A stretch of DNA of 64,000 nucleotides from Candidatus Poseidoniaceae archaeon (GCA_949372655.1 CASIAI010000001.1:13279-77278), one strand, 5' to 3'; positions 2,440 through 53,717 are shown, counted from the stretch's first letter. Numbers and translations are program-made. The notes: generated from the sequence alone by a model not told the origin.

Positions 2440-3276
2440 TTGGGTGTGTTAATTTTGCGTAAGCCTTTTTCAATACGTCTTGTGTTGATACTGACTCTAT
2501 CGATATTTTTGCTTGCCCCGGGCTTAGTTTCTTCTTCTCACCTTGGCATTGGAGGAGAGCAAATCAACTCCCAAGATGGAAGTACAATAAATGATGTTGC
2601 AAAGGAAGGATGCCTCTGCCACAACATCGCTGCTGATAACACAGTACAGATTATTCTCGACCAAGTCCCTTACTCTTGGATTGCTGGTGAGGCTTATGAA
2701 ATGACTCTTCAAATCATAGGTGGACCACCAGCAGCATCTCCTTACACTGCTGGATTCTCGATGAGAGTTAGTGCCGGAGAATTATCCGGAGACACGTCTC
2801 AAAACTGGGAAGGCGACCTAGGGACTTTGACCCATACTGGCGATAGCGCAGGGGTTTCTGACAGGGCATGGGTACTGACTTGGGTAGCACCAGCAACAGA
2901 AAATGGAGCAGTAAACTTCTGGATTACCGGCAATTCTGTTAACGGCGACCAAGGTCCTGGAGAAGCTGATAAGTGGAACCAACTCCTATTCTCAATGCAA
3001 GAAGGTAATGATGCTACAACGGCACTTGGAAAGCGTACATTATTTGCTGGTGATGGAAATGTTAGCCCACCTGTACCTGAAGAAGGTGGAGTCGACCTAA
3101 AACACATGGGCGCAGAATTTAGAGCGCATATTTTGGGACTTCTTGGTTTTGGAGCAGTTATTGCAGTAATAATATTCGCTGGATTGATGCTAAGATATAG
3201 TTTCTCTACGTCCTACAAAGGACGAAGCAATCAACTTAGATTGAGATATAAAATAAGAAGAAGAGGTGATCAATAA
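2440..3276 (+). CDS. Exported, C-terminally membrane-anchored protein with Cys-x-Cys-His motif; first gene of the Rieske/cyt b operon
   Basis: TTG start (GTG 2446 is an alternative). Signal-like N-terminus LVLILTLSIFLLAPGLVSSS. C-terminal TM ILGLLGFGAVIAVIIFAGLML followed by a basic tail. CLCH at aa 58-61 (nt 2611-2622). GFSMRVSAG...WVAPATENGAVNFWITGNSVNGD suggests a beta-sandwich domain. TTTAAAG lies about 27 nt upstream of the start. Confidence 0.6.
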   Translation: MGVLILRKPFSIRLVLILTLSIFLLAPGLVSSSHLGIGGEQINSQDGSTINDVAKEGCLCHNIAADNTVQIILDQVPYSWIAGEAYEMTLQIIGGPPAASPYTAGFSMRVSAGELSGDTSQNWEGDLGTLTHTGDSAGVSDRAWVLTWVAPATENGAVNFWITGNSVNGDQGPGEADKWNQLLFSMQEGNDATTALGKRTLFAGDGNVSPPVPEEGGVDLKHMGAEFRAHILGLLGFGAVIAVIIFAGLMLRYSFSTSYKGRSNQLRLRYKIRRRGDQ

Positions 3277-3719
3277 TGGATGACATGATTACTAATCTAC
3301 TTCGTGATGTTTCCAAAGGGAAAGTCAGTGTCGAAGATGCAAGGTTAGCCCTTGAAGATGCTACCTTGACCGAAGAACAATTGGAGTCAGCGATTGAAAA
3401 AGGCGTTTTCAAAGAAGCAGAAATGGGTTCGATTGTAAGTGCATCATTAGCACCATCAGGGGCTTCATACCTCACAATGTTCTTCTTCATATGGGGAATC
3501 TTTTGGGTCTGTTATTGGTTCTTTTCGCTAATATATGGATTGGCCAAAGATTGGGACCAAAGGCAATTATCATTCCATATGGCTATGGGAATCACAACTC
3601 TAATCTTCATGGGACTGGTTTACTTGAAGTTCATTTTGCCAGATAAAATCATTGTTAAACATTCGATAAATAAATTCATTCCCGAGCATCAGAAAGATTG
3701 GAAGGAGTATAAGTGGTGA
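3276..3719 (+). CDS. Small membrane protein (soluble N-terminal about 60 aa plus 3 TM helices)
   Basis: TAATG stop/start overlap with the upstream gene. Hydrophobic segments include YLTMFFFIWGIFWVCYWFFSLIYGL and MAMGITTLIFMGLVYLKFIL. No family recognised. Confidence 0.5.
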   Translation: MDDMITNLLRDVSKGKVSVEDARLALEDATLTEEQLESAIEKGVFKEAEMGSIVSASLAPSGASYLTMFFFIWGIFWVCYWFFSLIYGLAKDWDQRQLSFHMAMGITTLIFMGLVYLKFILPDKIIVKHSINKFIPEHQKDWKEYKW

Positions 3720-4573
3720 GTATCATGGCTAGAGAATACGAACTTAAGGTAGACCCATCGACATTGGGAAGCGGTGCATCCGGCTCATCGAGTAGCACCA
3801 TAAATCGTAGACAATTCCTGAAATATGGTTTTAACACAGCCACTGGAGTTCTTGCAGCATCTCTTGGAGTCCTTGGTTTTTCAGCGATCCTATTGCCACC
3901 TGGTGGAGGTACATCTGGAGACTTAGGTGTTGTTTTCTGGGCTAAAGGTCGTGAAGATGAAGCATGGTACGGCGATAAACATGAACTACCTATGACTCGA
4001 ACTGATTTCGTTAATGAAGCAGCCAAATCAAACACTGGGACTTCCGGTGCAGCCGGCATTTGGAATGGAGTTCCTGTTGTCGTAACATATGTAGACCACG
4101 TCAAAAACAAAGATACACCAGTATTCAACGGAAAGGCAAGGTTCCAAATGATGGAAGGGTTTGATGAAACAGGAAAGAGAATCGGTCACTTTGAAGATAT
4201 GAGTGACGCTGACCCCCGAATATTCCCTTCCGATAATCTCGTCATGATATTTGGACGATGTACTCACTTGTGTTGTATACCTGGATGGCAACTTGTTTCC
4301 AACTCTTACACAGATGACACTTGGACTCCTGGTGGCGGTGATGAAGGTGGAACAAAACTATTCTGTATTTGCCACTCTTCACGATTCGACCCTACTGCAT
4401 TAGAGATGAACTCAAACCGAAACCGTTCATCTGGAGCTACTTTCAGTTATGCTGGAATTCGCAGAGCAGGTGGACCTGCTCCCGTAGGACTTCCAATAAT
4501 TCCAATTCAACTTAATGGCGATGTCATAGAGGGCATTACAGACTATATCGATTGGTACACATATTGTGATTGA
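3713..4573 (+). CDS. Rieske [2Fe-2S] iron-sulfur protein with Tat signal
   Basis: Twin-arginine motif NRRQFLK followed by a TM helix. Rieske boxes CTHLCC and CICHSS. GGAG lies 5 nt upstream of GTG 3713; ATG 3725 is an alternative start. Confidence 0.9.
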   Translation: MVSIMAREYELKVDPSTLGSGASGSSSSTINRRQFLKYGFNTATGVLAASLGVLGFSAILLPPGGGTSGDLGVVFWAKGREDEAWYGDKHELPMTRTDFVNEAAKSNTGTSGAAGIWNGVPVVVTYVDHVKNKDTPVFNGKARFQMMEGFDETGKRIGHFEDMSDADPRIFPSDNLVMIFGRCTHLCCIPGWQLVSNSYTDDTWTPGGGDEGGTKLFCICHSSRFDPTALEMNSNRNRSSGATFSYAGIRRAGGPAPVGLPIIPIQLNGDVIEGITDYIDWYTYCD

Positions 4574-4582
4574 GGTGATTTT

Positions 4583-5449
4583 ATGACAACAATGTTTTGG
4601 ATTCTTTGGTTCTTTATTGCTTTCGTAATAGTGCTGATCGCTTTCACCTTGAGAAAGGAAAATGATGAAATGCCACGTAGAGAAATCCTACGTGCTGTTG
4701 AATCAAGCGGAAAAATGGGCTTTGCCGAAAGGTCATTCCTTTGGGTATTCTCTTGGCTTGATACCCGTTTTAGAATCCAAGATTATTGGAATATGTCAAA
4801 AGGTGCTTACTACAACATGCACAGACAGATGCCACTTACGCACGCAGAGAAGTATAAGTTGAGAATCATTTGGTATTGGTACCCGCTATACTGTCTTGGT
4901 GGAATCTCATTCCTTTCATTCATTATTCTGGTAATCACTGGAACTGTATTAGGAATATACTACGTTCCTGGTGGAGAAGGAATTCCTTCGCCTGCCTATC
5001 TTAGTATGCAATATATCATGACTGAATTACCATTTGGCTATATTATTAGAGCAGTTCACCACTGGGGTACTCACTTCATGGTTGCCAGTGTATTCTTACA
5101 TATGTGTAGAGTATATTTCACCGGAGCATACAGGAACCCAAGAGAACTAAACTGGCTGATTGGAGTTGCATTGATGGCATTGACAATTGTGTTTGGATAT
5201 TCTGGATACTTACTTCCTTGGGATTCTTTGGCATATGGTGCTGCAGTTATCGGAATCAACCTAGCAAACTCCAGCCCTCTTGTAGGGAAGTACATCGCTA
5301 CACTATTGTTCGGAGGCTCTTCGCTAACCTCAAGAACCGTCACACGAATGTACTTCATTCACGTATTTATCTTGCCAGTTATCGTAACTGGACTAATTAT
5401 TGTTCACCTGTTTATAGTATGGGTTCAAGGAATTGCGGAGCCACATTGA
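4583..5449 (+). CDS. petB: Cytochrome b, N-terminal (b6-like) half
   Basis: RAVHHWGTHFMVASVFLHMCRVYFTG gives His-x13-His in helix B. HVFILPVIVTGLIIVH gives His-x14-His in helix D, the b6-type spacing. Also has YLLPWD. GAGGTGAT lies just upstream of the ATG. Confidence 0.9.
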   Translation: MTTMFWILWFFIAFVIVLIAFTLRKENDEMPRREILRAVESSGKMGFAERSFLWVFSWLDTRFRIQDYWNMSKGAYYNMHRQMPLTHAEKYKLRIIWYWYPLYCLGGISFLSFIILVITGTVLGIYYVPGGEGIPSPAYLSMQYIMTELPFGYIIRAVHHWGTHFMVASVFLHMCRVYFTGAYRNPRELNWLIGVALMALTIVFGYSGYLLPWDSLAYGAAVIGINLANSSPLVGKYIATLLFGGSSLTSRTVTRMYFIHVFILPVIVTGLIIVHLFIVWVQGIAEPH

Positions 5450-5464
5450 TCAAGGAGGGATATT

Positions 5465-8284
5465 ATGGGAATTGTAGAGAATCTAGGCAGAGTTGCATCT
5501 TCTTACATGGAAGAGAAAGAAAAGTTACAGACTGTAGGTGAGAAAAGAAAAAGAACTCGTCTTGGGCATGGCTTTTGGCCTCATGAAGTGTTAAGAGATC
5601 TGTTGATTTTTGCATTCATGTTTGCTGTTTTATTGTATTATGCATGGCTGATACCTCCGCCACTTCACGGTGCTGCTGACCCATATGCACAAGCCGGTTT
5701 CGTATTCCCTGACTGGTATGTTCTATTTTCCTATGGTTACCTCAGATGGGGTGAATATTTACCTCAATTCTTAGTTCCTACTGGTTTTATTGGAGAAATA
5801 GTTGGTCAACCTGTATTCCCTTGGAACGCTGCATGGTGGGGAGCTGCATTAACCGGAATTCCAATCGGTATTTTGATTCTACCGCCATTCCTTGGTGGAA
5901 GAGAAAAGCGACCTGTTGAAGACCCATGGTTTGCATCTGCTGGAGCGGTTTATCTTGCTCATATATGGTTTATCTCAGTATTCTCCATCAATATTTTCTT
6001 GGAATTATACCATAAAAATCGTTCAGATTACTGTAAATTAGATAGTAATGCAGACTTGTTGTGTGGAACTCGGGAACCATGGTTAGCCGAAGCATTCAAT
6101 GCGATACCCTGGGTGATGACTGGGGTTTTGATGTGGATTTGTATCTATTTCATTGCTAGAGGAATACTTTCCAGAGCATGGGGGTCAGGATTCACTCCAC
6201 GCCATGCTAAGCAAATCATAGTTGGTGCATTGATTCTATCAACTGCTGCAAGCGTTGCTACATGGGACGTTTATGACAAAGGGTTCTGGGATGCTAAGGG
6301 TCTTCTAACCATCAAAGATTATGATGAACTAGAGGCTATGCGAACTCAACCTTCAGACATAGAGGTTCATGAAACAAATGAGTTCACAGATGAGTTTGGA
6401 TGGTCAGAGACTGGAATCGTTCCTACAACAGCATGGCTGGACTGGACTATTTATCAGCCTGGAAGAGAAGTTATGATAGATTTCGCAGATTCTAATGGCC
6501 ATCAAGACGCAAGTAATGGGATAAATGCTGCTTCTGCCTCCACGGTACTAACTTCGGTAAACTCTTGGCAAATTATTGGAAGTTTTGATGTAACTGAAGA
6601 CCCAGTAAATTTCCCTGATGGACATCATGAAACAATTTCTGCATTTACTACTGATGTTACTTGTGAGCATCGTGCTGATGAGAGAAAAATCAATGATGTA
6701 AAGACCGATACTATGTTTAGTAGTACCTTGAAGGTCACTGACTCAGATGGAAGTGTTGTCTCGGAATTAATTGACTGCCCTGCAGTTGGAGAATCTGTTG
6801 AACTACAAGTAGGAACATATCAATACCAATTCAATGTTGATGTCACAGGCCCTTTGGCTCTAAATGATACCATGGCCAAAGAAGTCAGTTTCAAAATATC
6901 ATCATTCCAGCCGCTATTGGTTTGGGATAGTAGTGTAGATAACTCGATTGCTGGCATGACTGTAAACCTAAGCAATACAACTGAAATGGCACTTGGAGCA
7001 GGACAATTCGGTGTTATAGAGAATCCTTCATACCATGTTAACCCTCTAAGTCTTGATGCAAAACTAACCTATGCAATGTTTATTCCATGTTTGACATTTG
7101 GCGCTATGGTATTTGTCTTACTAAGATCAATGGCTCGAGGATATGAGTTTGAGATGAACAAGTGTTATGGTTGTGACCTTTGTGATGATGCATGCCCTGT
7201 TAGATTGTTTAATGGTGGAGATAAACTCAACATCATCTATAATTCTTGGAACAATGAGGATGATGGAGTACCGATGTATTCTTGCTTAACATGTACTGCA
7301 TGTACAAATGCTTGTCCTCAACTTGTCAACTATGACTCATATGTAGATATTCGAAGAGGATTAATTGTTGGAGGCCCACAAGCTGAAATCCCTCACACAG
7401 TACTACAAGCGGTTCTGGCTGCTGAAGCGGAAGAAGAAGCAGATGCAGACTTCGTATCTGTTGAAAACTACCCACTATCATCCAATATTGGATACTACCC
7501 CGGCTGTGTCGACTACCTCGACCAAGAGATGGTTTTCTCGCATGTCAACGAAGGAGAAATGAATCTTGGAGATTCTACTACCGCTGCTTTCACTCTATTT
7601 GATGAGATGGAAGTAGATGTATCTTATCTTGGAAGAGACTTCCTAAAGTGTTGTGGTCACGACCAAAAGTGGCAAGGATTAACCGAAGTATTTGACAAAC
7701 TAAAGGCATATAATCAAAAGAAAATCAAGCAATCTGGAATTGATACTCTTGTTTCGTCATGTGCAGAGTGTTTCAGAACATTTGCTCGTGACTATGAACT
7801 TGAAGACGTCAAGGTCATGCATACAACTGAATTCCTTATTGAAAATGGCTTTGATATGAACCTAAAGGCTAATGAAGAAACTACAGTAACTTACCATGAC
7901 CCTTGTAGACTTGGTAGACAAATGGGAATTTATGAAGAGCCAAGAGAACTGATCAATGCTGTTGAAAATGTAAGTATCGTCGAGATGGAACACCATGGCG
8001 AAGATGCAATGTGTTGTGGTGTCTCAAGTATGATGTCTTGTAATGAGAATGCACGTGCTCTAAGAGTTTCTCGTATGGAAGAAATTAGAGATACTGGTGC
8101 TGATACAATGCTTACATCATGTCCTAAGTGTGTATCTCACTTTGAGTGTCTCAAGTTTGAAGGCGATGAGAAGTATGCTGATATCGAGATTCTTGACGTA
8201 GTGTCATTCCTTGCTAAGCAAGTCAACGAAAAGAAGGCTGCAATAGGTTCCGAAACCTTGAATGTTGTAGAATCTGAGGCTTGA
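5465..8284 (+). CDS. Fusion protein: cytochrome b C-terminal half/subunit IV, exported about 280-aa domain, extra TM helix, then HdrD/GlpC-like 2x[4Fe-4S] + 2xCCG module
   Basis: Single 939-codon frame with AGGAGGG upstream. FPDWYVLFSY is a PEWY-type motif, and there are about 5 TM helices in the first 260 aa. A hydrophilic stretch spans aa about 265-545, followed by TM helix YAMFIPCLTFGAMVFVLLRSMA. Ferredoxin motifs are CYGCDLCDDACP and CLTCTACTNACP. Cys-rich motifs are GC..KCCG..SCAEC and PC..MCCG..SCPKC. Confidence 0.85.
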   Translation: MGIVENLGRVASSYMEEKEKLQTVGEKRKRTRLGHGFWPHEVLRDLLIFAFMFAVLLYYAWLIPPPLHGAADPYAQAGFVFPDWYVLFSYGYLRWGEYLPQFLVPTGFIGEIVGQPVFPWNAAWWGAALTGIPIGILILPPFLGGREKRPVEDPWFASAGAVYLAHIWFISVFSINIFLELYHKNRSDYCKLDSNADLLCGTREPWLAEAFNAIPWVMTGVLMWICIYFIARGILSRAWGSGFTPRHAKQIIVGALILSTAASVATWDVYDKGFWDAKGLLTIKDYDELEAMRTQPSDIEVHETNEFTDEFGWSETGIVPTTAWLDWTIYQPGREVMIDFADSNGHQDASNGINAASASTVLTSVNSWQIIGSFDVTEDPVNFPDGHHETISAFTTDVTCEHRADERKINDVKTDTMFSSTLKVTDSDGSVVSELIDCPAVGESVELQVGTYQYQFNVDVTGPLALNDTMAKEVSFKISSFQPLLVWDSSVDNSIAGMTVNLSNTTEMALGAGQFGVIENPSYHVNPLSLDAKLTYAMFIPCLTFGAMVFVLLRSMARGYEFEMNKCYGCDLCDDACPVRLFNGGDKLNIIYNSWNNEDDGVPMYSCLTCTACTNACPQLVNYDSYVDIRRGLIVGGPQAEIPHTVLQAVLAAEAEEEADADFVSVENYPLSSNIGYYPGCVDYLDQEMVFSHVNEGEMNLGDSTTAAFTLFDEMEVDVSYLGRDFLKCCGHDQKWQGLTEVFDKLKAYNQKKIKQSGIDTLVSSCAECFRTFARDYELEDVKVMHTTEFLIENGFDMNLKANEETTVTYHDPCRLGRQMGIYEEPRELINAVENVSIVEMEHHGEDAMCCGVSSMMSCNENARALRVSRMEEIRDTGADTMLTSCPKCVSHFECLKFEGDEKYADIEILDVVSFLAKQVNEKKAAIGSETLNVVESEA
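7150..8281 (+). other. HdrD/GlpC/GlcF-like Fe-S + CCG domain region of the fusion protein
   Basis: Two CxxCxxCxxxCP motifs. Two CCG-type motifs, hand-counted as C-x47-CC-x35-CxxC and C-x35-CC-x34-CxxC. Confidence 0.8.
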
Positions 8285-8554
8285 TTAACTCTCGTCATTC
8301 ATTCCAACTATCTCATAGTTAGAAGGGAACAGAGCAATCGCTACTCCACCAATCAAAGCGAGTAAGCCCCAACCGAACATTTGTTGAACAAAGAGCATCT
8401 CTAATGCTAATACTACCAGTGCAAGCCCGCCAAGATTAGAAATCCAGACCAATGTTTTGAAAGTCGAAAGTGAAACACCTGTAGTCTCACCCTTTCTAAA
8501 CGGCCCGAACTCTCCACCAAAACGTTGTGCATCTGTTTTTCCATCTTCTGACAT
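8285..8554 (-). CDS. Small 2-TM membrane protein
   Basis: 89 aa with two hydrophobic helices (LVWISNLGGLALVVLALEMLF and GWGLLALIGGVAIALF). It is the last gene of the minus-strand block, 5 nt after the ferredoxin gene. Confidence 0.45.
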   Translation of the reverse strand: MSEDGKTDAQRFGGEFGPFRKGETTGVSLSTFKTLVWISNLGGLALVVLALEMLFVQQMFGWGLLALIGGVAIALFPSNYEIVGMNDES

Positions 8555-8559
8555 TTACA

Positions 8560-8892
8560 TCACCTATCTATCGTTGTAATCGCATCCGTAGGACATGCCA
8601 GTACACAAAGTCTACACCCTGTACAAGCATCTCGAATTATCTTAGCTTTACGATTGGACTCTACATTCATTAGTGGACTACGCATCTTCACTTTGTATAA
8701 CTCAATAGCATTATCATCACAGACAATATCACATTGGTCGCAACCAATGCATAAGCTTTCATTGACAAAGGCTACAACTTCTTCTCCGCCTTTAATCGAA
8801 GAATGTTGAACTCCTCTTTGTCGATTAAGTGAAGCCCGAATACGCAAAGCCTCCGCTTCACGGCGTTTGAGCAACTCATCAGCAGACGTCAT
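8560..8892 (-). CDS. 2x[4Fe-4S] ferredoxin-like protein
   Basis: CIGCDQCDIVCDDNAI and CTGCRLCVLACPTDAI. ATGA overlap with the upstream membrane-protein gene. Confidence 0.85.
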   Translation of the reverse strand: MTSADELLKRREAEALRIRASLNRQRGVQHSSIKGGEEVVAFVNESLCIGCDQCDIVCDDNAIELYKVKMRSPLMNVESNRKAKIIRDACTGCRLCVLACPTDAITTIDR

Positions 8893-9563
8893 ACAGACAC
8901 TCCGACGGCGGCCTTCTCTTCAAACCTAACGACTGTCATGTTGACAAGTAAATCCCCAAAACAATAGAACGCACCGACCAGTAGTGGTGGGTTCCAAGCG
9001 GTTAAACCTGTCCATGGCACCTCATTTGCCCAAGTCCAATTACCTAATTGCGTACCAACTATTTCCATTGCTAATGCAGCCCAAGCCATAGATGCATACA
9101 AACGAGGTTGTGGGCCAAATCTAGTGAAAACCAATACCAATATCAAAAGAATAAGTCCAGATGTATCACTGCCATCATAGACGCCATAAGCCACCATCGG
9201 TATGAAAGGAACCAAAATTGGTAAAGCCAGTGATTGTTTCATCTTGTTTGCCATAATTCTACCGAGGTCGAATAAGAAATAATGACCTGCAGGAACAAAT
9301 AGTGGCATTAGGCCTCGTTGGTATTCATAGATATCCCAAACTTCACTGAAGAATAATTCCATAGGTGTAGCAAATGCAAGGACTGTAATCATCTCTATTC
9401 TTTCTTTACGATTAGTAGTCTTGTAAATGTAAGCAAAAACACCCCAGCACCAGATATTTACCGGCCACTCTGCCAGGTTATCTGGAAGTAATCCACCAAA
9501 TGCAGTAGCAGAAATCCACAGGCCGATAACGATAGTTAGTGAGTATAACCATGCTCTGCCCAT
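8889..9563 (-). CDS. Multi-pass membrane protein, unknown family
   Basis: 224 aa and about 6-7 hydrophobic helices. It lies 47 nt downstream of the gshA-like gene and is translationally coupled (ATGA) to the ferredoxin gene. Confidence 0.5.
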   Translation of the reverse strand: MGRAWLYSLTIVIGLWISATAFGGLLPDNLAEWPVNIWCWGVFAYIYKTTNRKERIEMITVLAFATPMELFFSEVWDIYEYQRGLMPLFVPAGHYFLFDLGRIMANKMKQSLALPILVPFIPMVAYGVYDGSDTSGLILLILVLVFTRFGPQPRLYASMAWAALAMEIVGTQLGNWTWANEVPWTGLTAWNPPLLVGAFYCFGDLLVNMTVVRFEEKAAVGVSV

Positions 9564-9610
9564 ATATATCCCAGTAGATGTTCAGTATAATTGATATGCC
9601 TGATTAGTGA

Positions 9611-10825
9611 TCAGTTTTGATATGCTGAGAACTCTTTGCCCATAGCAAGCATCGAAAGTTCAGCAACCAAGGCATGCCAACCATGGGCATGCTTGCCGTA
9701 TAGGTGTCCAACTTCTGAATGACTTTGAAAAATAGCACTTGGAGAATTGAGATTCTCGATATCACTCTTCTTCTCATTAATTCTATAGAACCACGAAGCA
9801 GCCTGCCCATCAACTAAGTAAACCACAGGTTCAACTGGACCATCCGATTCAGTATTGAGACAGGTTGGAACCCCTTCTTGAATAAGGAAGTTTTCGACAT
9901 CAACTCCGCCTTTAGAATACATTAGTTTTTTCATCTTACGATTGGATAAGGCGAGTAATTCATCACCATTCTTAACCGATAAAATCCCTAAACCATATGT
10001 TCCACTATCATTCTTAATGAATACTACAGGCTCTCTATCTATCCCCATTGCTTGATATCGTGCTCCAATCTTAGCAAGGAAATCATCTACCTCTGCAGCA
10101 AGTTCAATTCTACAAGCCTCTTTTTCTAAGCATTTATCTTTAGAAACAAACCAATCGGTCATCAAATACCATGGTTCAATTCCAAGCATTTCGGCTATCT
10201 CATGAACATACTCTTTTAGTGCATCATAATGATTTGACTTTCTTCTTACGTGCCATCCCATTTGTGGCGGAGGAGATACTCTTGTTGACCCAATACCTGG
10301 CACTATTCCTTCTGTTAGGTCATTATTTAGCAGAATTAAATCTGGTCTCTTACCATCAACAACAATACCTTGTTCGCCATCAAATTCCTTTAATTCGACA
10401 TAGTCTAGTAGTAATGGAGCAGATAAACCATCTATTGAACCATGACTTTGCAGTTCAGGAGAACCGACAGTACATCGAAAACCTGCCTTAGAAATCAATC
10501 GTTGAAGAGTGCGAAGATTCTCCACATATGCTGCATTTCTAGTATGTGCTTCAGGATATAAGTGAACCCATTTACACGTCTCATCTCTACGTAAAATATG
10601 ATTTCTAAGTAATGCTGCAAGATGTTCTTCGTCTTCTTTGGCGACATTATTGAAACCTGCAGGAAAGTGATTTGCATCAACGACTGCAATTTTCCAGCCT
10701 GCATCACGAATATCGACACTACCATAGATTGGAATTGATACTTCGCTTCTCTTTTCCTCCATCCAAGAAGTGATCTCTTCTCGCTTATCCTCAATCAGTG
10801 AGGTTAGTTCATGTAAATTCATCAT
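9611..10825 (-). CDS. Probable glutamate--cysteine ligase-like enzyme (Acidithiobacillus/Leptospira-type GshA family)
   Basis: The N-terminal IPIYGSVDIRDAGWKIAVVDANHFPAGFNN matches my recollection of the Pfam GshA (PF08886)/TIGR02049 family. About 400 aa. ATGA overlap with the upstream asnB-like gene. Needs HMM confirmation. Confidence 0.55.
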   Translation of the reverse strand: MMNLHELTSLIEDKREEITSWMEEKRSEVSIPIYGSVDIRDAGWKIAVVDANHFPAGFNNVAKEDEEHLAALLRNHILRRDETCKWVHLYPEAHTRNAAYVENLRTLQRLISKAGFRCTVGSPELQSHGSIDGLSAPLLLDYVELKEFDGEQGIVVDGKRPDLILLNNDLTEGIVPGIGSTRVSPPPQMGWHVRRKSNHYDALKEYVHEIAEMLGIEPWYLMTDWFVSKDKCLEKEACRIELAAEVDDFLAKIGARYQAMGIDREPVVFIKNDSGTYGLGILSVKNGDELLALSNRKMKKLMYSKGGVDVENFLIQEGVPTCLNTESDGPVEPVVYLVDGQAASWFYRINEKKSDIENLNSPSAIFQSHSEVGHLYGKHAHGWHALVAELSMLAMGKEFSAYQN

Positions 10826-12603
10826 ATCACCTCATCGAGTAGTTCAATTGCAGAACCTGTACGCTTACTACGCCCACCATCTAAGATGTGCATAGCCTCA
10901 AACAACCCAAGTCCAATCGCTAATTCGGGCTGACCCTCAAGAACCTTAGCAAATTTAGAATACTTTTTGCAGACCTCATCACCTCTAGGCTTTAGTTCAC
11001 TTAGAAATGCCTTGAGAAGTGAGGGGGAAGTTGCGGTTCCTGCTGGTAATTTTGGCCTTCGAACAATATCTTTGGGTAGATTGGTTAGGTCAGCTGCCGC
11101 TCTTAGCGCTGCTTTCTCTTCCATATTATTTGGCAATCTCCAGTCCATTGGAAGTTTACTTGAAGCCTCACGATGAGATTTACCTAAAAATGGTACTCTC
11201 ACCTCTAATGAATGTGCCATAGAATGCCTATCGACCAGTCTAAGTTGAAAATTACTCAACTGACCATGTTCTAATTCAAATTCTAAGAATTCATCCAATG
11301 AGGAAGTATGTTGCTCCGGCAAATGGTTGGCATTATACCAATTATCGCCTACCAGTAAATTAGAATTCAATATATCAGCAGTAACCGAAGAATCAATACT
11401 TTCGATTCTACTTCGAATTAGATTTGCATGACTATCCAAGTCACGATAGCGAGGGTATCCTGCGTGTAATTCATCAGCACCTTGACCGCACAAGCCAACT
11501 GTTACCTGCTCTCGCATTTTCTTGAATAATGGCTGGAAGAATAATACTGATACATCTAAATCTTCACCATGCCAAGCCAAATCAGGTAATGTTGATTCAA
11601 ATGAATCTTCAGGCAGTATGTATTGATGATGTTTCAAATCCAAAGTTGAGGCAACTACCTCCGCTGCTTGCCAGTCAGGGTTATCTTCACTCTCTGCAAC
11701 TGTCCAACAATCAGGAACTGGTTGGTCTGCTCTCTTAGCAGCCTCATGCGCAACTGCTGCTACAAGAGATGAATCCAAGCCACCTGAAAGTACGATTCCA
11801 ACCGGAACATCTGACATTAGTCGTTCTTGAACTGCTTCAACAAAAGTATCGAGTAATTTTTCAGCATCTGTATCTGGATTCCAAGTATCACTTGGATTGA
11901 CTTTTTGTCGCTCAACATTAGCGATAGAATGCAAGTAAGCACCCCCCGACTCTCCAAGTTTCCAAACTTCTACAGTACCAGGTCTAACTTGTGTTACATC
12001 TTTGATTAAGGTTGTTCCATCAAGGGGATATTCCCAAGCCAAACGAATTGCCAATGCGGTTTCATCCAATTGTGGAATATGACCTTCATGGCCTCTTAGT
12101 GCTTTTACTTCACTAGCAAATAACAGACTGCCATCGACTACTGTCCTAACAAGTGGTTTGATTCCCATAGGGTCTCTTGCCAAAATTAATTCCTGACGCC
12201 TAGAATCCCAAAGTGCAAAACCATACATTCCATTCAGTTTAGCAATCCATTGTTTATGGTCATCGGCTGAAGTGGTGGATAGATTAAGTTTAGACATGGC
12301 ATCTGAATGTAATGCAATTATAGATTCAGAGTCACCTCTTGTTTGCCATGAATAATTGGAACTATTACGAATAGAACGGTGGTTGTAAATTTCACCATTA
12401 GCGATCAAAACTTCGCCATCATGCCCATGCATAGGTTGTTGACTGCCATCAAGGTCGACTATTGCTAATCTGGTATGTCCAAGTGAGATGTTATCATCAG
12501 ACCAAATGTCCTGACCGTCAGGGCCTCGATGTTGAATCAATTTGGTCATACGATATACGATAGATGAATCTGGATGACCAAACATACCAGCAATGCCGCA
12601 CAT
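10822..12603 (-). CDS. asnB: Asparagine synthase (glutamine-hydrolysing)-family amidotransferase
   Basis: MCGIAG N-terminal nucleophile Cys of Ntn-type glutamine amidotransferases. SGGLDSS PP-loop. 593 aa. Confidence 0.85.
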   Translation of the reverse strand: MCGIAGMFGHPDSSIVYRMTKLIQHRGPDGQDIWSDDNISLGHTRLAIVDLDGSQQPMHGHDGEVLIANGEIYNHRSIRNSSNYSWQTRGDSESIIALHSDAMSKLNLSTTSADDHKQWIAKLNGMYGFALWDSRRQELILARDPMGIKPLVRTVVDGSLLFASEVKALRGHEGHIPQLDETALAIRLAWEYPLDGTTLIKDVTQVRPGTVEVWKLGESGGAYLHSIANVERQKVNPSDTWNPDTDAEKLLDTFVEAVQERLMSDVPVGIVLSGGLDSSLVAAVAHEAAKRADQPVPDCWTVAESEDNPDWQAAEVVASTLDLKHHQYILPEDSFESTLPDLAWHGEDLDVSVLFFQPLFKKMREQVTVGLCGQGADELHAGYPRYRDLDSHANLIRSRIESIDSSVTADILNSNLLVGDNWYNANHLPEQHTSSLDEFLEFELEHGQLSNFQLRLVDRHSMAHSLEVRVPFLGKSHREASSKLPMDWRLPNNMEEKAALRAAADLTNLPKDIVRRPKLPAGTATSPSLLKAFLSELKPRGDEVCKKYSKFAKVLEGQPELAIGLGLFEAMHILDGGRSKRTGSAIELLDEVI

Positions 12604-12651
12604 GGATTAGGCTACAAGGCTTTGTTCTTCAATAATGGGATTAGTAAAATC

Positions 12652-12804
12652 TCACCATAATGGATATTGGAACATAGAAACTGCGAGGAAAATCATGCTT
12701 AATGCAAATACGAAATAATAAGCTCCTTGGGAAGGGCCGGAGTTTTCACTTTCATCATACATGTGTCTCAACATTCCTTCGACAATCCATTCCCATTTTA
12801 ACAT
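12652..12804 (-). CDS. Possible 50-aa single-TM micro-protein (below the ORF-track cutoff)
   Basis: Hand translation of the minus strand gives MLKWEWIVEGMLRHMYDESENSGPSQGAYYFVFALSMIFLAVSMFQYPLW*. It sits in the otherwise empty 212-nt gap between two minus-strand genes. No homology evidence. Confidence 0.25.
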   Translation of the reverse strand: MLKWEWIVEGMLRHMYDESENSGPSQGAYYFVFALSMIFLAVSMFQYPLW

Positions 12805-12815
12805 ATTGAATAAAA

Positions 12816-13439
12816 TCACATTAAACCAATGAATGGTTCAAGAATCATAATAGCCGCCAGAGGGATAAGAAGCATGGTGGCATTGTCATCGATATAGCGC
12901 AATCTTGGCATCTCAGCAAATACGCAGATCGGTGCAAAGATAAATGCTAACCACCATGGTGTTGCAAAAAGATACCAGCAGATTAACCAAAGTACGATTA
13001 AGAAAGAAATTGAGTAAATTACTACTTCCCTTGTTTCTACACCTAAGCGTCTTAATTCACCCATAAATGGGTCGCCGAAAGTCAAAGAGAAAATTAGTGG
13101 ATAGGCATATTCTTTGATTGGCACCAATAAGAATACCATTCCAATTGCCAAACCCCCCCATGCTAAAGCGGAGACTTGCTTTGCCTCGTATTCACGTTGA
13201 CCAAAAATAGTAAAACCCAATTTTAGCCTAATTGTTTCCCCAATTATTGCCACAATTATTACCGCTGATACCAGTTGTGATAGAGTGAAATCGATTTTTT
13301 CGGCTACAGTATCTCCAAATTCGAAATATGCAATTGGAATTAAAAACATTAGAAGATGGAAAACTCTTCTGAATATATGGCCCTTGAAACCACCAACTGA
13401 CTGTTCAACTGGGTCGGTTAATTCAACTTGTTCTGACAT
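12816..13439 (-). CDS. Multi-pass membrane protein; weak resemblance to CTP-dependent polyprenol/dolichol kinase-type proteins
   Basis: 207 aa and about 6 TM helices. FGDPFMGELRRLG is reminiscent of the GDxxAxxxG motif of that superfamily, a weak match. The start codon directly abuts the meaB stop (TAAATG). Confidence 0.4.
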   Translation of the reverse strand: MSEQVELTDPVEQSVGGFKGHIFRRVFHLLMFLIPIAYFEFGDTVAEKIDFTLSQLVSAVIIVAIIGETIRLKLGFTIFGQREYEAKQVSALAWGGLAIGMVFLLVPIKEYAYPLIFSLTFGDPFMGELRRLGVETREVVIYSISFLIVLWLICWYLFATPWWLAFIFAPICVFAEMPRLRYIDDNATMLLIPLAAIMILEPFIGLM

Positions 13440-14345
13440 TTAATCCTCTCCTAATTGCTTCAAGGCTGATTCAACAGAGGTTGAACCTATCGCTAAATTA
13501 TGAAGGATTTCGTCTAGTTTATCAGATTCTAAAATTTTCCGTTCGTGGTGTGCAAGTAACCTTTCACGCCATTTGGCTTTCTTCGAACGACCTGTATCCT
13601 CAAGTTCCAGCAACACAGAAGATGCTTCTTCGATTCCCTCGCCCAATAATGCTGAAGTTAGAATTATTGGTGGCGTTTGACCCAAACCTAATTCGAAGGA
13701 TTCCTTAATCTCACCAGCATGTTGACTTGCCCCTGAAATATCGGATTTATTGACAATTACAGCATCTGCTAATTCTAGTAGACCGGCTTTTTCGGCTTGT
13801 ACTCCATCTCCACGAGCAGGCCCTTCAACCACTACAATTCTGTCGGTAATCGCTGCACACCTCACTTCTGATTGCCCAGAACCAACTGTTTCGATAATCA
13901 CTCTTTCCCAGCCGATTGCGCTAAGAAACTCAACCATATCTGACACAATTAAAGGAGCGCTACCAGAGGACTTCCTTGTTGCGATTGAACGAATATAAAT
14001 TAGGTCTTTGTATTGTTCATTATCAATTGCAGTAATTCTAACTCTATCGCCAAGCAGTGCGCCACCTGTGCGAGGCGAAGAAGGGTCAATAGCCAGTAAG
14101 GCTGTCTTAATTCCCTTTGAAGACCAATCGATTAGGATTTTATCAATCAAGCAAGATTTGCCAACCCCTGGAGCACCAGTAATAGCCAGTGACGACCAAG
14201 TGTCCTGAACTGAATCCGTGAATATTGAAGGAAACTCATCCTTGATATCACTCAAATTCAAGGTTCGATTTTCTAAAGAACTCAAAACTCTGGCAATAGA
14301 ACGTCTATCTCCTTGTATTGCATCGGTGACGAGTTGTAAATCCAA
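13440..14345 (-). CDS. meaB: Methylmalonyl-CoA mutase-associated G-protein (MeaB/ArgK)
   Basis: Walker A GAPGVGKS, LAIDPSSPRTGGALLGDRVR and VNKSD. Confidence 0.85.
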   Translation of the reverse strand: MDLQLVTDAIQGDRRSIARVLSSLENRTLNLSDIKDEFPSIFTDSVQDTWSSLAITGAPGVGKSCLIDKILIDWSSKGIKTALLAIDPSSPRTGGALLGDRVRITAIDNEQYKDLIYIRSIATRKSSGSAPLIVSDMVEFLSAIGWERVIIETVGSGQSEVRCAAITDRIVVVEGPARGDGVQAEKAGLLELADAVIVNKSDISGASQHAGEIKESFELGLGQTPPIILTSALLGEGIEEASSVLLELEDTGRSKKAKWRERLLAHHERKILESDKLDEILHNLAIGSTSVESALKQLGED

Positions 14346-17472: not shown

Positions 17473-20400
17473 ATGGCTGAGATAAATATTTATCGTGAAT
17501 ATAAAAAAACTTCAACTATTATCATAGTATTGATGTTTCTAATTATGAGTTTTACTTCAATTATTGGTAATGTCTCTGCTGTTGGAACAAACCAAAATGA
17601 CATAGGAACATCAGGCGGAGATTTACCTGACAATTTATCATCCATAACCTCAATACCAAACTTAATTTTTAGTGGGTCAACTAACGGTACTGGTGAACTA
17701 TATCCATCTAGTGATCAATATGATTACTTGAGAGTTAGTTTGGCTGCAAATGAAGGTTTAGCAGTTGAATTATCATTTGATTCTTCGGATGATTTTGACT
17801 TGGCAATATATGATTCATCTGCACAAAATATTATTGATGATTCATATATGTACAATCCAGAAACTGTAACAACTAATGGTTCAACACATGGCGGCGTGGT
17901 TTATATCGAAATTTATGGATACTTATTCGGTTCAATATCGAATTGGTCTTATGATATTACCATCTGGAAATTCACTACTGGTTCAACTGGTGGTGGAAAT
18001 GGAAGTGGAGGAAGTAGCGGAATAGCAATTCCAAGTCCATGTACGGGCAATGGAACTACTGCCCCTGATATTCTGGAGCCTAATGACACCCCTGCAACTG
18101 CAACTTTAGCCTCACTATTACCAGTTTATTGTACTGGACTAAGTGTTGAAATTAATTCTGCTGGTGTTGCTAATGATGATTACTTCGAAGTACAAATGGT
18201 TAGTGGAGTAACTTACTATTTCAATTTGACATTTACCCACTTCAATGGTGATATTGACGCAACTCTAGAAGATTCTTCAGGTACCTTAATTTCATTTAAT
18301 AGTTTTACTTCAATGAGTTCCTCTTCAGATAATGAGGCCGGAGAATATACAGCAACCTCAAATTTCACTGCTTATTTCAAGGTATACCACTATTCTTCAT
18401 TTGGATCTACTGGGACCATTGCAAATGTCTACGATATTGAAATTTCAACTGATAACCCTGGTGGTGGACAATCATTTTCAACCATTGATGTAACTATGAA
18501 TAACCTAACAAATGTAACACTAGAGATGACTGGATTGACAGTTGGAGATACTTATCAGTATGAGTTTTATCAATCTTTTGAAAATGGAATTAATTCATCC
18601 ATAACTAATCAATTAACTCAAGGTCCATACTCATTTGTTGCAACTTCAACATCTGAAACTGTAAATTACACAATCTCAGGTGGAGACATTGAAGGATACT
18701 ATTCCGTTTCTGCTAACCTTTCTGATAACTTAGGAGCAAGACTCAGTTCTAACGTGGATTCAATCTACAAAGAAATGTTAATCTTAGATACAACATCCTC
18801 GACAACTGGAGAAATTTTTGCCAGTAACTTAACTGCTGGAAATCAATATACATTACAATGGATTGTTGTTGATTTAGTACTTTACCTTGATGAACTCAAT
18901 GCTGGGCAGAGTATAGAATTCGCGCTCAACCAATCTATGGTAGACCAAAACTATACCAACTTCTCTGCACTCTCCAATTCAAACTATTGGCAAGTTGGTT
19001 GGCAAAACCCAATAACTGCTAATGAGCATGGTTTTCTTGCAATATTATCTATTCAAGGAGTCAACACCAACCTTTCAGCCGGCGAAGGTTACATAGGAGT
19101 GCACAACGATGAATTTATTCCCCAACTACCTTCTGCAGTAATTACTAATTATTCATTGAGTACTACGTCTACAAATAATGACTATACCTCTGAAGGTCTT
19201 GACTTAGTTCTTGGTGACTCTTACTATCAGCAATATAGGGTTGAAGACTCAGGTGGCGCAGATATCGCATTTTCCACTCTCACTTCCTATACCGCCACAT
19301 CACAAAATATGTCATTTGGAAAATTCTTCTATACCACGCCAACTGTTTCTGGACAATACTGCCTATATTCAGAATTATATGATTCAAATAATGTACAATT
19401 GATCGGTGATTATGTTTGTATCTTATTTGTTTTCGATGATGACAATGATGGTATTGCTAATGAGGATGATATCTGTCCAAATACTACACCTGGTTCAATG
19501 GTTGATTCTAATGGTTGTGCACTATCTCAAAAAGATACAGATGGTGACGGATATAACGACGACGTAGATGATTATCCTAACGACGCAACCCAATGGGTTG
19601 ATGGAGATGGTGATGGATACGGAGATAATCCAAATGGAAACGTTCCTGATGCATTCCCATATGACAATACTCAATGGGCTGACCAAGATGGAGATGGCTA
19701 TGGAGATAATCCAAATGGAAATTATTCTGATGCATTCCCTACCGACCCAACACAATGGAGTGATTCTGATGGTGACGGATACGGCGATAATGCAAATGGA
19801 AACAATGCTGATTTGTGGCCTACAGATTCAACACAATGGACAGATTCAGATGGTGATGGCTATGGAGATAACCCAACTGGAACCAACGGTGACCAATTCC
19901 CATTTGATGTAACTCAATGGGCTGACCAAGACGGTGATGGGTTTGGGGACAATGCTAGTGGAAATGATCCTGACCATTTCCCTACAGACGGAACACAGTG
20001 GGAAGACCAAGACGGCGATGGGTTTGGAGATAATATCGGAGGTAATAATGCAGATAAATTCCCGACTGAGCCAACACAATGGTATGACTCAGATAATGAT
20101 GGATATGGAGACAATCAAGCTGGACTGAACCCTGATGCATTCCCTAATGATGGAACTCAATGGGCTGATACAGATGGCGATGGTTTCGGTGATAATCAAA
20201 ATGGAAATAACCCTGATAAATTCATTTCCGACCAAACCCAATGGTTTGATGCTGATGGCGATGGCTACGGAGATAATGCAAATGGAAATAATCCGGACTT
20301 GTGCCCAAATACTCCTTTTGGACAAAATGTCGATATGACCGGATGTTCATCATCACAATTAGATGATGATATGGATGGACTCTCTAATGATTTAGATTCT

Positions 20401-41229: not shown

Positions 41230-42258
41230 ATGAGTGGTAAACAACTTCCAATGGCTGGAAATAATAGTGCTACGAAGAAGAGAAGACGCCTCCCCCCTTG
41301 GTTTAAGACTACTTTGCCTAGTGGCTCTCAACAAGAAATGTTCAATGAGACTAAATCGGCGGTCAAAAATAACAAACTTCACACTGTTTGTGAAGAAGCC
41401 AGATGCCCGAATATTCATGATTGCTGGTCGAGTGGTGATGCGACATTTATGATCGCAGGCCAAGAGTGTACTCGAGGATGTAGATTCTGCGCCGTAGGGT
41501 CGATTAAAACCCCTCCTCCACTTGATACTGAAGAACCTGAAAACCTCGCAGATGCTGTGGAATCTATGAATCTAAAGCATGTTGTAATTACTGTAGTGAA
41601 TAGAGATGATTTAGGTGATAGCGGTGCATCGCATTACAAAGAATGTATCGAAGCAGTACACAAAAGACAACCTGATTTGACAATAGAACTTCTATGTTCA
41701 GACCTTGCAGGAGATATTGGAGACTTAGAATTCTTACTAAAGCAAAGTCCGCTCTCGGTTTTTGCTCATAATGTAGAATGTGTTCCTCGCTTGGATAGAA
41801 CTGTAAGAGATAGAAGAGCTTCTTTCTCTCAATCACTCAATATACTCAAAGAAGCAAAACGAATTAGACCCGATATGATAACTAAATCTTCACTTATGGT
41901 TGGTGTCGGTGAAACAGACGATGAAATCATTGAGGCTATGAAGATGCTACGTACTGCTGATGTTGATTTACTGACTATTGGACAATACCTCGCACCTTCT
42001 AGTAAACATCTTACTATTGACCGGTTCCCAGAACCAGAACTATATGACCAGTGGGCGGAAGTCGCTATTGATTTAGGTTTCTTGGGTGTTGCCAGTGGAC
42101 CATTTGTTCGTTCTTCTTTCAAGGCGGGGCTATTACTTAGGAAACTAAAAGACCCAAATAATAATGAAAGTATGCCAGGAGCACATGTTTTAATTTCTAA
42201 CAACTTAAACTTTGACCGGCATCACTTAATGTCTCGACTAACTGAGGTGAAACAATGA
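41230..42258 (+). CDS. lipA: Lipoyl synthase
   Basis: CEEARCPNIHDCW is the auxiliary-cluster Cx4Cx5C motif. CTRGCRFCAV is the radical-SAM CxxxCxxC motif. GGAGGA lies upstream. ATGA overlap with the next gene. Confidence 0.9.
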   Translation: MSGKQLPMAGNNSATKKRRRLPPWFKTTLPSGSQQEMFNETKSAVKNNKLHTVCEEARCPNIHDCWSSGDATFMIAGQECTRGCRFCAVGSIKTPPPLDTEEPENLADAVESMNLKHVVITVVNRDDLGDSGASHYKECIEAVHKRQPDLTIELLCSDLAGDIGDLEFLLKQSPLSVFAHNVECVPRLDRTVRDRRASFSQSLNILKEAKRIRPDMITKSSLMVGVGETDDEIIEAMKMLRTADVDLLTIGQYLAPSSKHLTIDRFPEPELYDQWAEVAIDLGFLGVASGPFVRSSFKAGLLLRKLKDPNNNESMPGAHVLISNNLNFDRHHLMSRLTEVKQ

Positions 42259-43496: not shown

Positions 43497-43505
43497 GGTG
43501 TTATT

Positions 43506-44516: not shown

Positions 44517-44518
44517 AT

Positions 44519-45796: not shown

Positions 45797-45806
45797 AGGT
45801 GATTTA

Positions 45807-53687: not shown

Positions 53688-53717
53688 CTGAAGTTTCATG
53701 TTTGGTTGCCTTCTGGC

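Follow-up and report, generated by a model that had tools for sequence, protein, structure and literature searches.

The window analyzed here, a 64,000-nucleotide (nt) stretch from a Candidatus Poseidoniaceae archaeon of Marine Group II (MGII) (GCA_949372655.1, CASIAI010000001.1:13279-77278), carries an operon for a Rieske/cytochrome b complex, in which the gene at 5465..8284 on the plus strand joins a predicted subunit IV, the C-terminal half of cytochrome b, to an iron-sulfur (Fe-S) module of the HdrD type. The gene starts with ATG 15 nt behind the stop codon of the cytochrome b gene, has an even GC content of 0.38 to 0.43 along its length, and encodes 939 amino acids (aa) without an internal stop, which bears out the single uninterrupted frame reported in a preliminary description of this DNA. 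Hydropathy analysis places six transmembrane (TM) segments at aa 46 to 64, 122 to 144, 157 to 179, 213 to 238, 248 to 269, and 534 to 552, in agreement with the approximately five N-terminal helices and the sixth helix after a hydrophilic stretch described there. TM numbers are claimed for the window protein (six) and for P0147 and L030 (four each), the hydropathy splitter being noisy elsewhere. The N-terminal 45 aa contain nine Lys/Arg residues, and the other basic regions are the loop at aa 145 to 156, with three Lys/Arg residues, and the stretch behind TM6. The insert between TM5 and TM6 is 264 aa long and strongly acidic, with 43 Asp/Glu versus 13 Lys/Arg residues. Under the positive-inside rule, this charge pattern predicts that both termini lie inside and the insert lies outside, so that the placement of the N terminus and the Fe-S/CCG module in the cytoplasm that was proposed earlier agrees with both hydropathy and charge. 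The sequence FPDWYVLFSY is found at aa 81 to 90, and the two CxxCxxCxxxCP motifs, CYGCDLCDDACP and CLTCTACTNACP, are found at aa 567 to 578 and 607 to 618, respectively. The two CCG domains show Cys spacings of C681-x47-C729C730-x35-C766xxC769 and C814-x35-C850C851-x34-C886xxC889, exactly as counted before. The parts of the fusion protein and the surrounding genes are listed in Table 1.

Table 1. Predicted features of the fusion protein and the genes around it, in window coordinates
Feature	Position	Strand	Basis or remarks
Subunit IV/cytochrome b C-terminal domain, aa 1-240	5465..6184	+	Helices E-H; profile versus PDB, Pfam on relatives, invariant residues
Qo motif PDWY, aa 82-85	5708-5719	+	
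TM helix 5, aa 248-269, MGII specific	6206..6271	+	Hydropathy; not in short fused relatives
Outside domain, aa 270-533, MGII specific	6272..7063	+	Beta-rich, acidic, variable; alignment, AlphaFold2 (AF2)
TM helix 6, aa 534-555, predicted to bring the chain back to the cytoplasm	7064..7129	+	Hydropathy, alignment
HdrC-like 2 x [4Fe-4S] ferredoxin domain, aa 563-621	7151..7327	+	Pfam Fer4_8/9/10
CCG domain 1 (C681, C729, C730, C766, C769)	7505..7771	+	Pfam CCG; Cys invariant
CCG domain 2 (C814, C850, C851, C886, C889)	7886..8143	+	Pfam CCG, best stretch aa 808-893; Cys invariant
O278, first operon gene	2440..3276	+	Signal peptide, beta-rich outside domain, GCxCH, C-terminal TM anchor; NCBIfam choice-of-anchor V, E 1.3e-22
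O147, small membrane protein, second operon gene	3276..3719	+	Weak DUF7318 match; homologs in same place in most related loci
Rieske [2Fe-2S] protein	3713..4573	+	Twin-arginine (Tat) signal RRQFLK; box I CTHLCC; box II CICHSSRF; TIGR01416, E 2.1e-10
Cytochrome b6-type N-terminal half	4583..5449	+	PF00033, E 6.9e-43; cytochrome b6 subfamily NF002990, E 1.3e-59
FDX, 110-aa polyferredoxin-type 2 x [4Fe-4S] ferredoxin	8560..8892	-	Pfam Fer4 families
Glutamate-cysteine ligase GshA	9611-10825	-	PF08886; 1.3 kb downstream of fusion gene
Asparagine synthase	10822-12603	-	

The N-terminal domain of the fusion protein is, as judged by family-level profiles, a subunit IV homolog. In the window protein itself, this domain gave no match in Pfam, PF00032 included, even at an E value of 10 and none in NCBIfam, and as a single sequence it showed only weak matches in the PDB, to cytochrome b residues 220 to 282 and subunit IV residues 27 to 89 (E = 0.085 to 0.6). 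However, a profile built from the N-terminal domain and 10 distant relatives matched residues 223 to 349 of Rhodobacter cytochrome b with an E value of 4.8e-16 and subunit IV of the b6f complex with an E value of 2.7e-9. When aa 1 to 275 were scanned against 1.84 billion representative proteins, relatives at 30 to 40% identity across aa 12 to 180 were recovered beside MGII fragments, and long cytochromes b were matched at their positions about 220 to 310. The relatives at 30 to 40% identity exceed the gathering score of Pfam Cytochrom_B_C (PF00032). The earlier assignment of this domain from its PEWY-type motif is therefore supported by the family profile, the Pfam-positive relatives, and the matches to long cytochromes b, although hmmscan of the window sequence yields only the CCG and Fer4 part of the expected domains, and the Cytochrom_B_C part is obtained with relatives and with the family profile. 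All of the 22 MGII and 11 distant sequences compared contain the PDWY motif unchanged. This variant is common in archaea and of the menaquinol type, and it accompanies low- and mid-potential Rieske proteins (Kao & Hunte 2014). In addition, the subunit IV domain is encoded directly behind genes for a Rieske protein and a four-helix cytochrome b6-type protein, an arrangement shared by four other MGII loci (L083 to L086) and, with few exceptions, by the 80 related loci described below.

The C-terminal module is a predicted distinct subfamily of the HdrD-type module, composed of two [4Fe-4S] sites and two complete CCG domains. Pfam CCG matched two stretches (E = 1.9e-22) and Pfam Fer4_8/9/10 matched aa 563 to 619 (E = 3.5e-7 to 2.9e-6), each of these matches exceeding the gathering score. 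All 18 of the 18 cluster-ligand Cys residues are invariant among 22 aligned MGII representatives, and the same holds for the Qo motif and the greater part of the TM core. The best solved homolog of this module is EtfD of Mycobacterium smegmatis (9ojn), with E values of 2.4e-22 by phmmer, 1.7e-27 by profile, and 8e-13 by Foldseek; LutA and HdrB rank after it, and Foldseek confirms the CCG fold. The HdrD-type module that had been recognized from Cys motifs alone is thus backed by Pfam, invariant residues, and fold matches. In EtfD, the cofactors are arranged in the order CCG1, CCG2, [4Fe-4S], [4Fe-4S], heme b, and menaquinone, with gaps of 7 to 9 Angstrom; CCG1 holds a linear [3Fe-4S] cluster because Cys-Thr stands in place of Cys-Cys, and His583 completes the CCG2 cluster. 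CCG domain 1 of the window protein aligns to EtfD C503/C538-T539/C581/C584, which places C729-C730 opposite the EtfD Cys-Thr and Glu768 opposite His583. Since both window CCG domains possess the full HdrB-type set of five Cys residues, the protein is not an EtfD ortholog, and EtfD was rejected as its identity on this ligand pattern, with C-C in CCG1 and Glu768 at the His position; the N-terminal domain is assigned to subunit IV. None of the NCBIfam equivalogs for TfrB, LdhH, GlpC, DsrK, TmcB, GlcF, and HdrB reached its cut-off, and the scores fell far below it for DsrK (41.7 versus 400), GlpC (42.5 versus 278), and HdrB (22.7 versus 345). Methanogen HdrD, DsrK, GlpC, GlcF, TfrB, and LdhH were likewise rejected as identities because of such scores and because their membrane partner is a different one. 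Databases annotate the fusion gene as "heterodisulfide reductase subunit D" or "Fe-S oxidoreductase."

The fused form recurs throughout MGII. Of the 120 matches listed in a search of 5.8 billion proteins, 107 are 908 to 942 aa long and cover 98 to 100% of the query at 59 to 93% identity. The full-length orthologs were drawn from ENA, JGI, NCBI, Tara, and Logan assemblies, in clusters of up to 967 member sequences, and those with names belong to metagenome-assembled genomes (MAGs) of Candidatus Poseidoniaceae, MGII, or Thermoplasmatota. Short versions also exist in the databases, namely, twelve singletons of 705 aa and a few sequences of 674 to 731 aa, which resemble a separate Fe-S protein and might suggest that the frame in the window spans two genes merged through an overlooked stop, a frameshift, or a chimera of the assembly. 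The 705-aa case that was examined, L086 (3288-4100 and 8693-9641), lies on a polished long-read contig and shows two frame changes within a continuous subunit IV sequence, and its AsnB gene is broken as well, which indicates that the short version there is an indel error. Full-length sequences make up the great majority of the best matches and come from many samples and assemblers, GC content is uniform over the fusion gene, and fused forms without the insert occur independently in other classes. The probability that the fusion is an artifact is thus negligible, and the assembly error against which the preliminary description had cautioned is countered by more than 100 full-length MGII orthologs that reproduce the fusion.

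The gene order O278, O147, Rieske protein, cytochrome b6, and subunit IV fusion is kept in the four divergent MGII loci L083 to L086, whose fusion proteins share 60 to 81% identity. A Rieske protein and a b6-type cytochrome b with H-x14-H in helix D had been noted directly upstream of the fusion gene, and both identifications hold with HMMs and translation. Helix B of the cytochrome b holds its heme ligands as R..H-x13-H, and in helix D their spacing is H-x14-H. Helix A contains the sequence YCLGG (CxGG) in the window and in the four other MGII loci. The CxGG motif marks a covalent heme ci (Dibrova et al. 2017), and the cytochrome b6 of the window would, by this motif, carry heme ci. Ahead of the canonical helix A, the same protein is extended by ~70 aa, and it has an additional TM helix at its N terminus. 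The Ser and Phe residues of the S..F pair after Rieske box II place the protein in the class of 200 to 230 mV (Baymann et al. 2012). A CxxCH protein that could represent cytochrome c1 or f was not found in the operon; O278 stands in the gene place of cytochrome f/c1. No Pfam or PDB relative of O278 was found, its GCxCH motif is conserved and reduced to CH in a few relatives, and its homologs lie upstream of the Rieske and cytochrome b genes in MGII, MGIII, and other Thermoplasmatota loci. O278 may be the outside redox partner of the Rieske protein. MGII were previously reported to be without a canonical bc1 complex, with cytochrome b and a Rieske protein mentioned and complex III termed "MGII specific" (Tully 2019).

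A subunit IV profile scan of GTDB species representatives provided a view of this operon outside MGII. The best 80 of 145 loci were used, almost all of them from Thermoplasmatota and including MGIII, Poseidoniia, Thermoplasmata, and others, and their open reading frames (ORFs) were called and searched with HMMs made from the window's own domains. The scan pattern PDWY[LF]L[WF]x[YFW]G leaves out MGII, which have PDWYVLF, and the distribution figures are those of a sample and not of a census. Five architectures occur within one conserved operon. In the simplest, subunit IV stands alone with about 210 to 300 aa. In MGIII and Poseidoniia, subunit IV is fused to the 2[4Fe-4S] domain (341 to 391 aa) and is followed, with overlapping stop and start codons, by a separate CCG protein of ~295 aa, which is an HdrC-like/HdrB-like split. 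In the third form, subunit IV carries extra TM helices and the dicluster domain (435 to 490 aa), again with a separate CCG gene behind it; in the fourth, seen in other Thermoplasmata, subunit IV, Fer4, and CCG are fully fused without an insert (543 to 789 aa); and in the fifth, that of MGII, the full fusion also contains TM5, the outside domain, and TM6. Throughout the forms with clusters, the junction (K/R)GYE(Y/F)xLNxCYxC is kept between the last helix and the first cluster, appearing in MGII as RGYE(F/Y)xMNKCYxC directly behind TM6, and it leaves ~8 to 19 residues between the membrane and the first cluster, with ~30 more in MGIII. In the window protein, 8 to 15 residues separate the end of TM6 from the first Cys of the ferredoxin domain, depending on the choice of helix end. 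This conserved junction would place the first cluster at the membrane surface. Fused and split forms thus both occur in related archaea, in a survey of the kind called for in the preliminary description, and this is classic evidence that the parts work together. The conserved fusion and the presence of both forms in one operon support the coupling of a Rieske/cytochrome b complex to a cytoplasmic CCG module that had been proposed.

The presence of the module is mirrored in helix A of cytochrome b. CxGG is found in nine of nine fused loci, and all of the 42 split loci that could be scored have xGG, with CxGG in 14 and SxGG in 28, the latter from epipelagic MGIII. In loci without an Fe-S module, TLGS is found in 16 of 23; among the seven exceptions are four loci that end within the subunit IV gene and a fifth, L058, from a lineage that otherwise has the module, in which this gene is unusually short. 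In epipelagic MGIII (L008 to L045 and others), the motif reads SLGG, with the pocket kept and the Cys for covalent heme ci lost, and L053, L064, and L071 keep CLGG. The overall pattern is consistent with an Fe-S module that travels with an n-side pocket of the heme-ci type and with cytoplasmic partners at the level of ferredoxin.

The partner in question in MGII and MGIII would be FDX, which is composed of a basic N-terminal helix, CxxCxxCxxxCD, an insert of ~30 aa, and CxxCxxCxxxCP, and whose best PDB relatives are the polyferredoxins of Hdr/Fwd/Mvh complexes. An FDX ortholog lies directly 3' of the CCG gene on the same strand in 32 of 43 split loci, most of the others ending after the CCG gene, and in none of the 28 loci without an Fe-S module; ferredoxins of this type are found at 7883-8722 in L009 and 8297-8707 in L061. 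In MGIII, the FDX ortholog is the C-terminal half of a 280-aa polyferredoxin. Within MGII, FDX begins 5 nt behind the fusion gene in L085 (11768-12148) and lies 345 nt downstream on the same strand in L083, so that its opposite orientation in the window is likely due to a small local inversion. FDX is likely a cytoplasmic partner or subunit of the complex. In fused relatives of the anaerobic type, genes for an HdrA-like flavoprotein and MvhD are found downstream instead. In the L001 locus (3729-13632), HdrA-like, MvhD, HdrC-like, and HdrB-like genes follow the fusion gene, and multiheme cytochromes c flank the operon; the corresponding stretch of L011 is at 7350-11041. Such loci suggest an Hdr-type complex in the membrane with a Rieske/cytochrome b core as its base.

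Among the 22 aligned MGII representatives, the outside domain is variable except for an invariant Cys pair, C400/C438; no conserved cofactor motif is present, and neither Pfam nor NCBIfam gives a match in the domain, in line with the hydrophilic insert without a recognized cofactor motif that had been described. AF2 predicts an all-beta structure with a predicted local distance difference test (pLDDT) score of mostly 70 to 90 for aa 300 to 520, and Foldseek returned weak, generic matches to GOLD/jelly-roll sandwiches. Invariant Cys pairs occur in two segments predicted to lie outside, at aa 190/200 in the loop between helices G and H and at aa 400/438, and both are probable disulfides.

The operon resembles those of b6f and of Bacillus-Heliobacterium b6c-type complexes in the order of Rieske, cytochrome b6, and subunit IV genes, in the H-x14-H and CxGG motifs, and in the PEWY-type motif of subunit IV. 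In contrast to these complexes, the window subunit IV has four core helices rather than three, two more TM helices besides, and ~390 cytoplasmic residues with four predicted Fe-S cluster sites, and the unrelated O278 takes the place of a cytochrome f/c1 gene, which is lacking. To our knowledge, no b6f or b6c complex has a built-in Fe-S chain on its n side. The Rieske boxes CTHLCC and CICH and a cytochrome b with four heme-ligand His residues are shared with canonical bc1 and b6f complexes. As in HdrDE and DsrMK, two [4Fe-4S] sites and two complete CCG domains would lie on the cytoplasmic face of a membrane b-type cytochrome; however, the partner here is cytochrome b6/subunit IV of the Rieske type, which has a Qo site, and not a diheme cytochrome of the NarI/HdrE type, the host is an aerobic nonmethanogen, and the DsrK and HdrB scores are far below the cut-off. 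Mycobacterial EtfD (9ojn) has a TM domain, two cubane clusters, and two CCG domains in the same order, and its wire reaches heme and quinone, but its five-TM, single-heme domain is unrelated to subunit IV, and it has a linear [3Fe-4S] cluster and a His ligand where the window protein has CC in both CCG domains and Glu768.

The nearest published precedent found is the PDWF-FeS clade, bacterial cytochromes b that are fused to 4Fe-4S/MvhD or ferredoxin/flavin oxidoreductase domains and that lack a Rieske protein (Kao & Hunte 2014). They share with the window protein a cytochrome b with a Qo motif and a built-in cytoplasmic Fe-S module, whereas the clade is bacterial, has PDWF, and is without Rieske protein and CCG domains, and the window has a Rieske protein, the b6 split, a heme-ci motif, and CCG domains. 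In the anammox Rieske/cytochrome b complexes, a cytoplasmic redox module is also co-encoded and is proposed as an outlet for low-potential Qo electrons (PMC12954380); that module is a flavoprotein NAD(P) oxidoreductase on a separate subunit, bacterial, and its function is likewise unproven. Full-text literature searches turned up no account of either the fusion or the operon, the PDWF-FeS clade being the only related statement. The earlier remark that no characterized bc1/b6f complex of this build was known is thus to be qualified by the bacterial PDWF-FeS cytochromes b, which had been noted before (Kao & Hunte 2014). The comparisons suggest a conserved complex III design, undescribed in the literature searched, whose architecture is well supported by sequence and whose function we infer.

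The fusion protein is very probably a genuine subunit IV::HdrD subunit that forms an Fe-S wire on the membrane's n side. The wire would run bL - bH - ci - [4Fe-4S] - [4Fe-4S] - CCG - CCG and end in the cytoplasm, where the co-encoded FDX, or HdrA/MvhD in the anaerobic relatives, would dock. If the chain is in tunneling contact with heme ci/bH, the low-potential side of the complex would be open to the cytoplasm. We tentatively favor an inward flow of electrons, from a low-potential cytoplasmic donor to ci/bH, with quinone reduced at Qi. Reduced FDX, or else possibly a thiol or flavoprotein, would serve as donor, and the complex would act both as a donor:quinone reductase, like EtfD or HdrDE in reverse, and as a quinol oxidase, whose electrons would pass via the Rieske protein to O278 on the outside and to a terminal oxidase. 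This direction is favored because EtfD, the nearest characterized wire, runs from donor to quinone, because HdrA/MvhD or a polyferredoxin is a natural donor to an acceptor at the level of quinone, and because the retained heme-ci pocket implies a working Qi site. CCG proteins of aerobes, such as EtfD, GlcF, LutA, and SdhE, deliver electrons to quinone, which favors input as well, as does the lifestyle of MGII, which are obligate aerobic heterotrophs that degrade fatty acids and proteins (Tully 2019). Together, the conserved ferredoxin, the HdrA/MvhD neighbors, and the likeness to EtfD make input at least as likely as an HdrDE-like output.

Several observations weigh against this reading. The direction of electron flow is not readable from a sequence and is its weakest step. 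The full five-Cys sets are those of catalytic HdrB and not of EtfD, so that a thiol/disulfide active site may exist, and the best NCBIfam match is the thiol-oxidizing enzyme TfrB, at 113.8 bits against a cut-off of 385. In the window, FDX runs counter to the fusion gene, and synteny in MGII extends over the entire region, which makes the adjacency of FDX weak evidence there; the counts by which helix A and FDX co-vary with the module are phylogenetically nonindependent; and the AF2 monomer of the whole protein, based on the 22-sequence alignment, is poor (pLDDT 59, predicted TM-score [pTM] 0.37), with the TM part and the Fer4 domain unusable, so that no geometry was drawn from it. The main rival, somewhat less favored, is the HdrDE/DsrMK-like reading implied in the preliminary description, output by bifurcation at Qo, in which the high-potential electron goes to the Rieske protein and the low-potential electron goes via bL, bH, ci, and the Fe-S/CCG chain to a cytoplasmic acceptor, either a disulfide such as bis-gamma-glutamylcystine or ferredoxin, so that an open Q cycle would yield low-potential reductant and membrane potential. 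The complete HdrB-type ligand sets of both CCG domains agree with this, as does the precedent of HdrDE, which works that way. PDWY and the S..F Rieske class indicate a low-potential complex of the menaquinol type, for which disulfide or ferredoxin potentials would be within reach only by bifurcation, and an analogous proposal, for the making of NAD(P)H, exists for anammox Rieske/cytochrome b complexes (PMC12954380). A GshA gene lies 1.3 kb downstream of the fusion gene and is near it in two of the three other complete MGII loci and in L086, but this adjacency is inseparable from general synteny, and GshA is missing in L083. Further, the xGG/heme-ci pocket is intact and thereby points to a functional Qi site, which would be a competitor for these electrons, an obligatory loss of half of the respiratory electrons to the cytoplasm ill suits aerobic heterotrophy, and we know of no MGII-specific disulfide substrate. 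Rather less likely than not, the complex would be a quinol-driven bifurcating machine reducing ferredoxin or a cytoplasmic disulfide or, in reverse, a natural form of the long-sought ferredoxin:quinone reductase, hard-wired via heme ci.

Input might also use another donor, with FDX only an accessory, if the CCG end oxidizes a thiol, of low molecular weight or on a protein, or takes electrons from an electron transfer flavoprotein (ETF) or a dehydrogenase, as in EtfD, GlpC, GlcF, and LutA. That EtfD is the best match in both sequence and fold, that TfrB is the best NCBIfam match, that MGII degrade fatty acids and proteins, and that the HdrC/HdrB/HdrA/MvhD set behind the L001 fusion gene fits a shared thiol/disulfide couple all speak for such an entry. 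It is nevertheless improbable, since the loci examined show no linkage of the operon to a gene for ETF or for lactate, glycolate, or glycerol-3-phosphate dehydrogenase, the ligand changes specific to EtfD are absent, and all equivalog cut-offs are missed widely. More improbable still is a module attached to subunit IV without electron contact to the hemes, for example, as a redox sensor or as an enzyme in its own right that is tethered to the membrane. In SdhE and GlpC, the CCG modules do act at the membrane surface without a heme partner. However, the presence of the module tracks the xGG heme-ci pocket, the short conserved junction sets the first cluster at the membrane surface by helix H or TM6, and fused and split forms are always found within a Rieske/cytochrome b operon.

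MGII and MGIII are among the most abundant archaea of the ocean, and the present annotation of the fusion gene as Hdr subunit D or Fe-S oxidoreductase conceals a likely role in their respiratory chain. Their complex III, so far only noncanonical (Tully 2019), can now be defined as a predicted module of seven parts, namely, O278, O147, the Rieske protein, cytochrome b6 with a heme-ci motif, subunit IV, the HdrC/HdrB-like Fe-S chain, and the polyferredoxin-type ferredoxin, of which the cytoplasmic port is fused, split, or lost depending on the lineage. An additional port for electrons, facing the cytoplasm, would bear on the entry of ferredoxin electrons at Qi/heme ci, and thus on the disputed role of the b6f complex as a ferredoxin-plastoquinone reductase in cyclic electron flow. 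It would equally bear on Qo bifurcation feeding low-potential cytoplasmic acceptors, which has been proposed but not shown for the anammox complexes; if bifurcation is true, aerobic marine archaea would make low-potential reductant directly from the quinone pool. With either direction, if true, the complex would stand, as a living form, midway between Q-cycle complexes and Fe-S dehydrogenases anchored in the membrane. As an extant case, it would lend substance to the view that the membrane anchors of Fe-S dehydrogenases are the ancestors of cytochrome bc complexes (Dibrova et al.).

Among the neighboring genes, that for GshA is also found nearby in L084, L085, and L086 and is missing from the equivalent stretch of L083. 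It hints at gamma-glutamylcysteine as the thiol of these archaea; as a clue to a gamma-glutamylcysteine disulfide substrate, its adjacency is a weak hint, given the synteny of the region and its absence from L083. Elsewhere in the window, genes for lipoyl synthase, 2-oxoacid dehydrogenase E1 alpha, E1 beta, E2, and E3, and lipoate ligase are found at 41230-47237 and 53706-54386, both on the plus strand. Three very large ORFs encode products of 1376 aa (17473-21603, plus strand), 2977 aa (27821-36754, minus strand), and 972 aa (36836-39754, minus strand), and the 1376- and 972-aa products gave no Pfam match at an E value of 1e-5. SAP-domain proteins are encoded at 47286-48062 and 56225-58003, and the second of these also contains an M28 peptidase domain.

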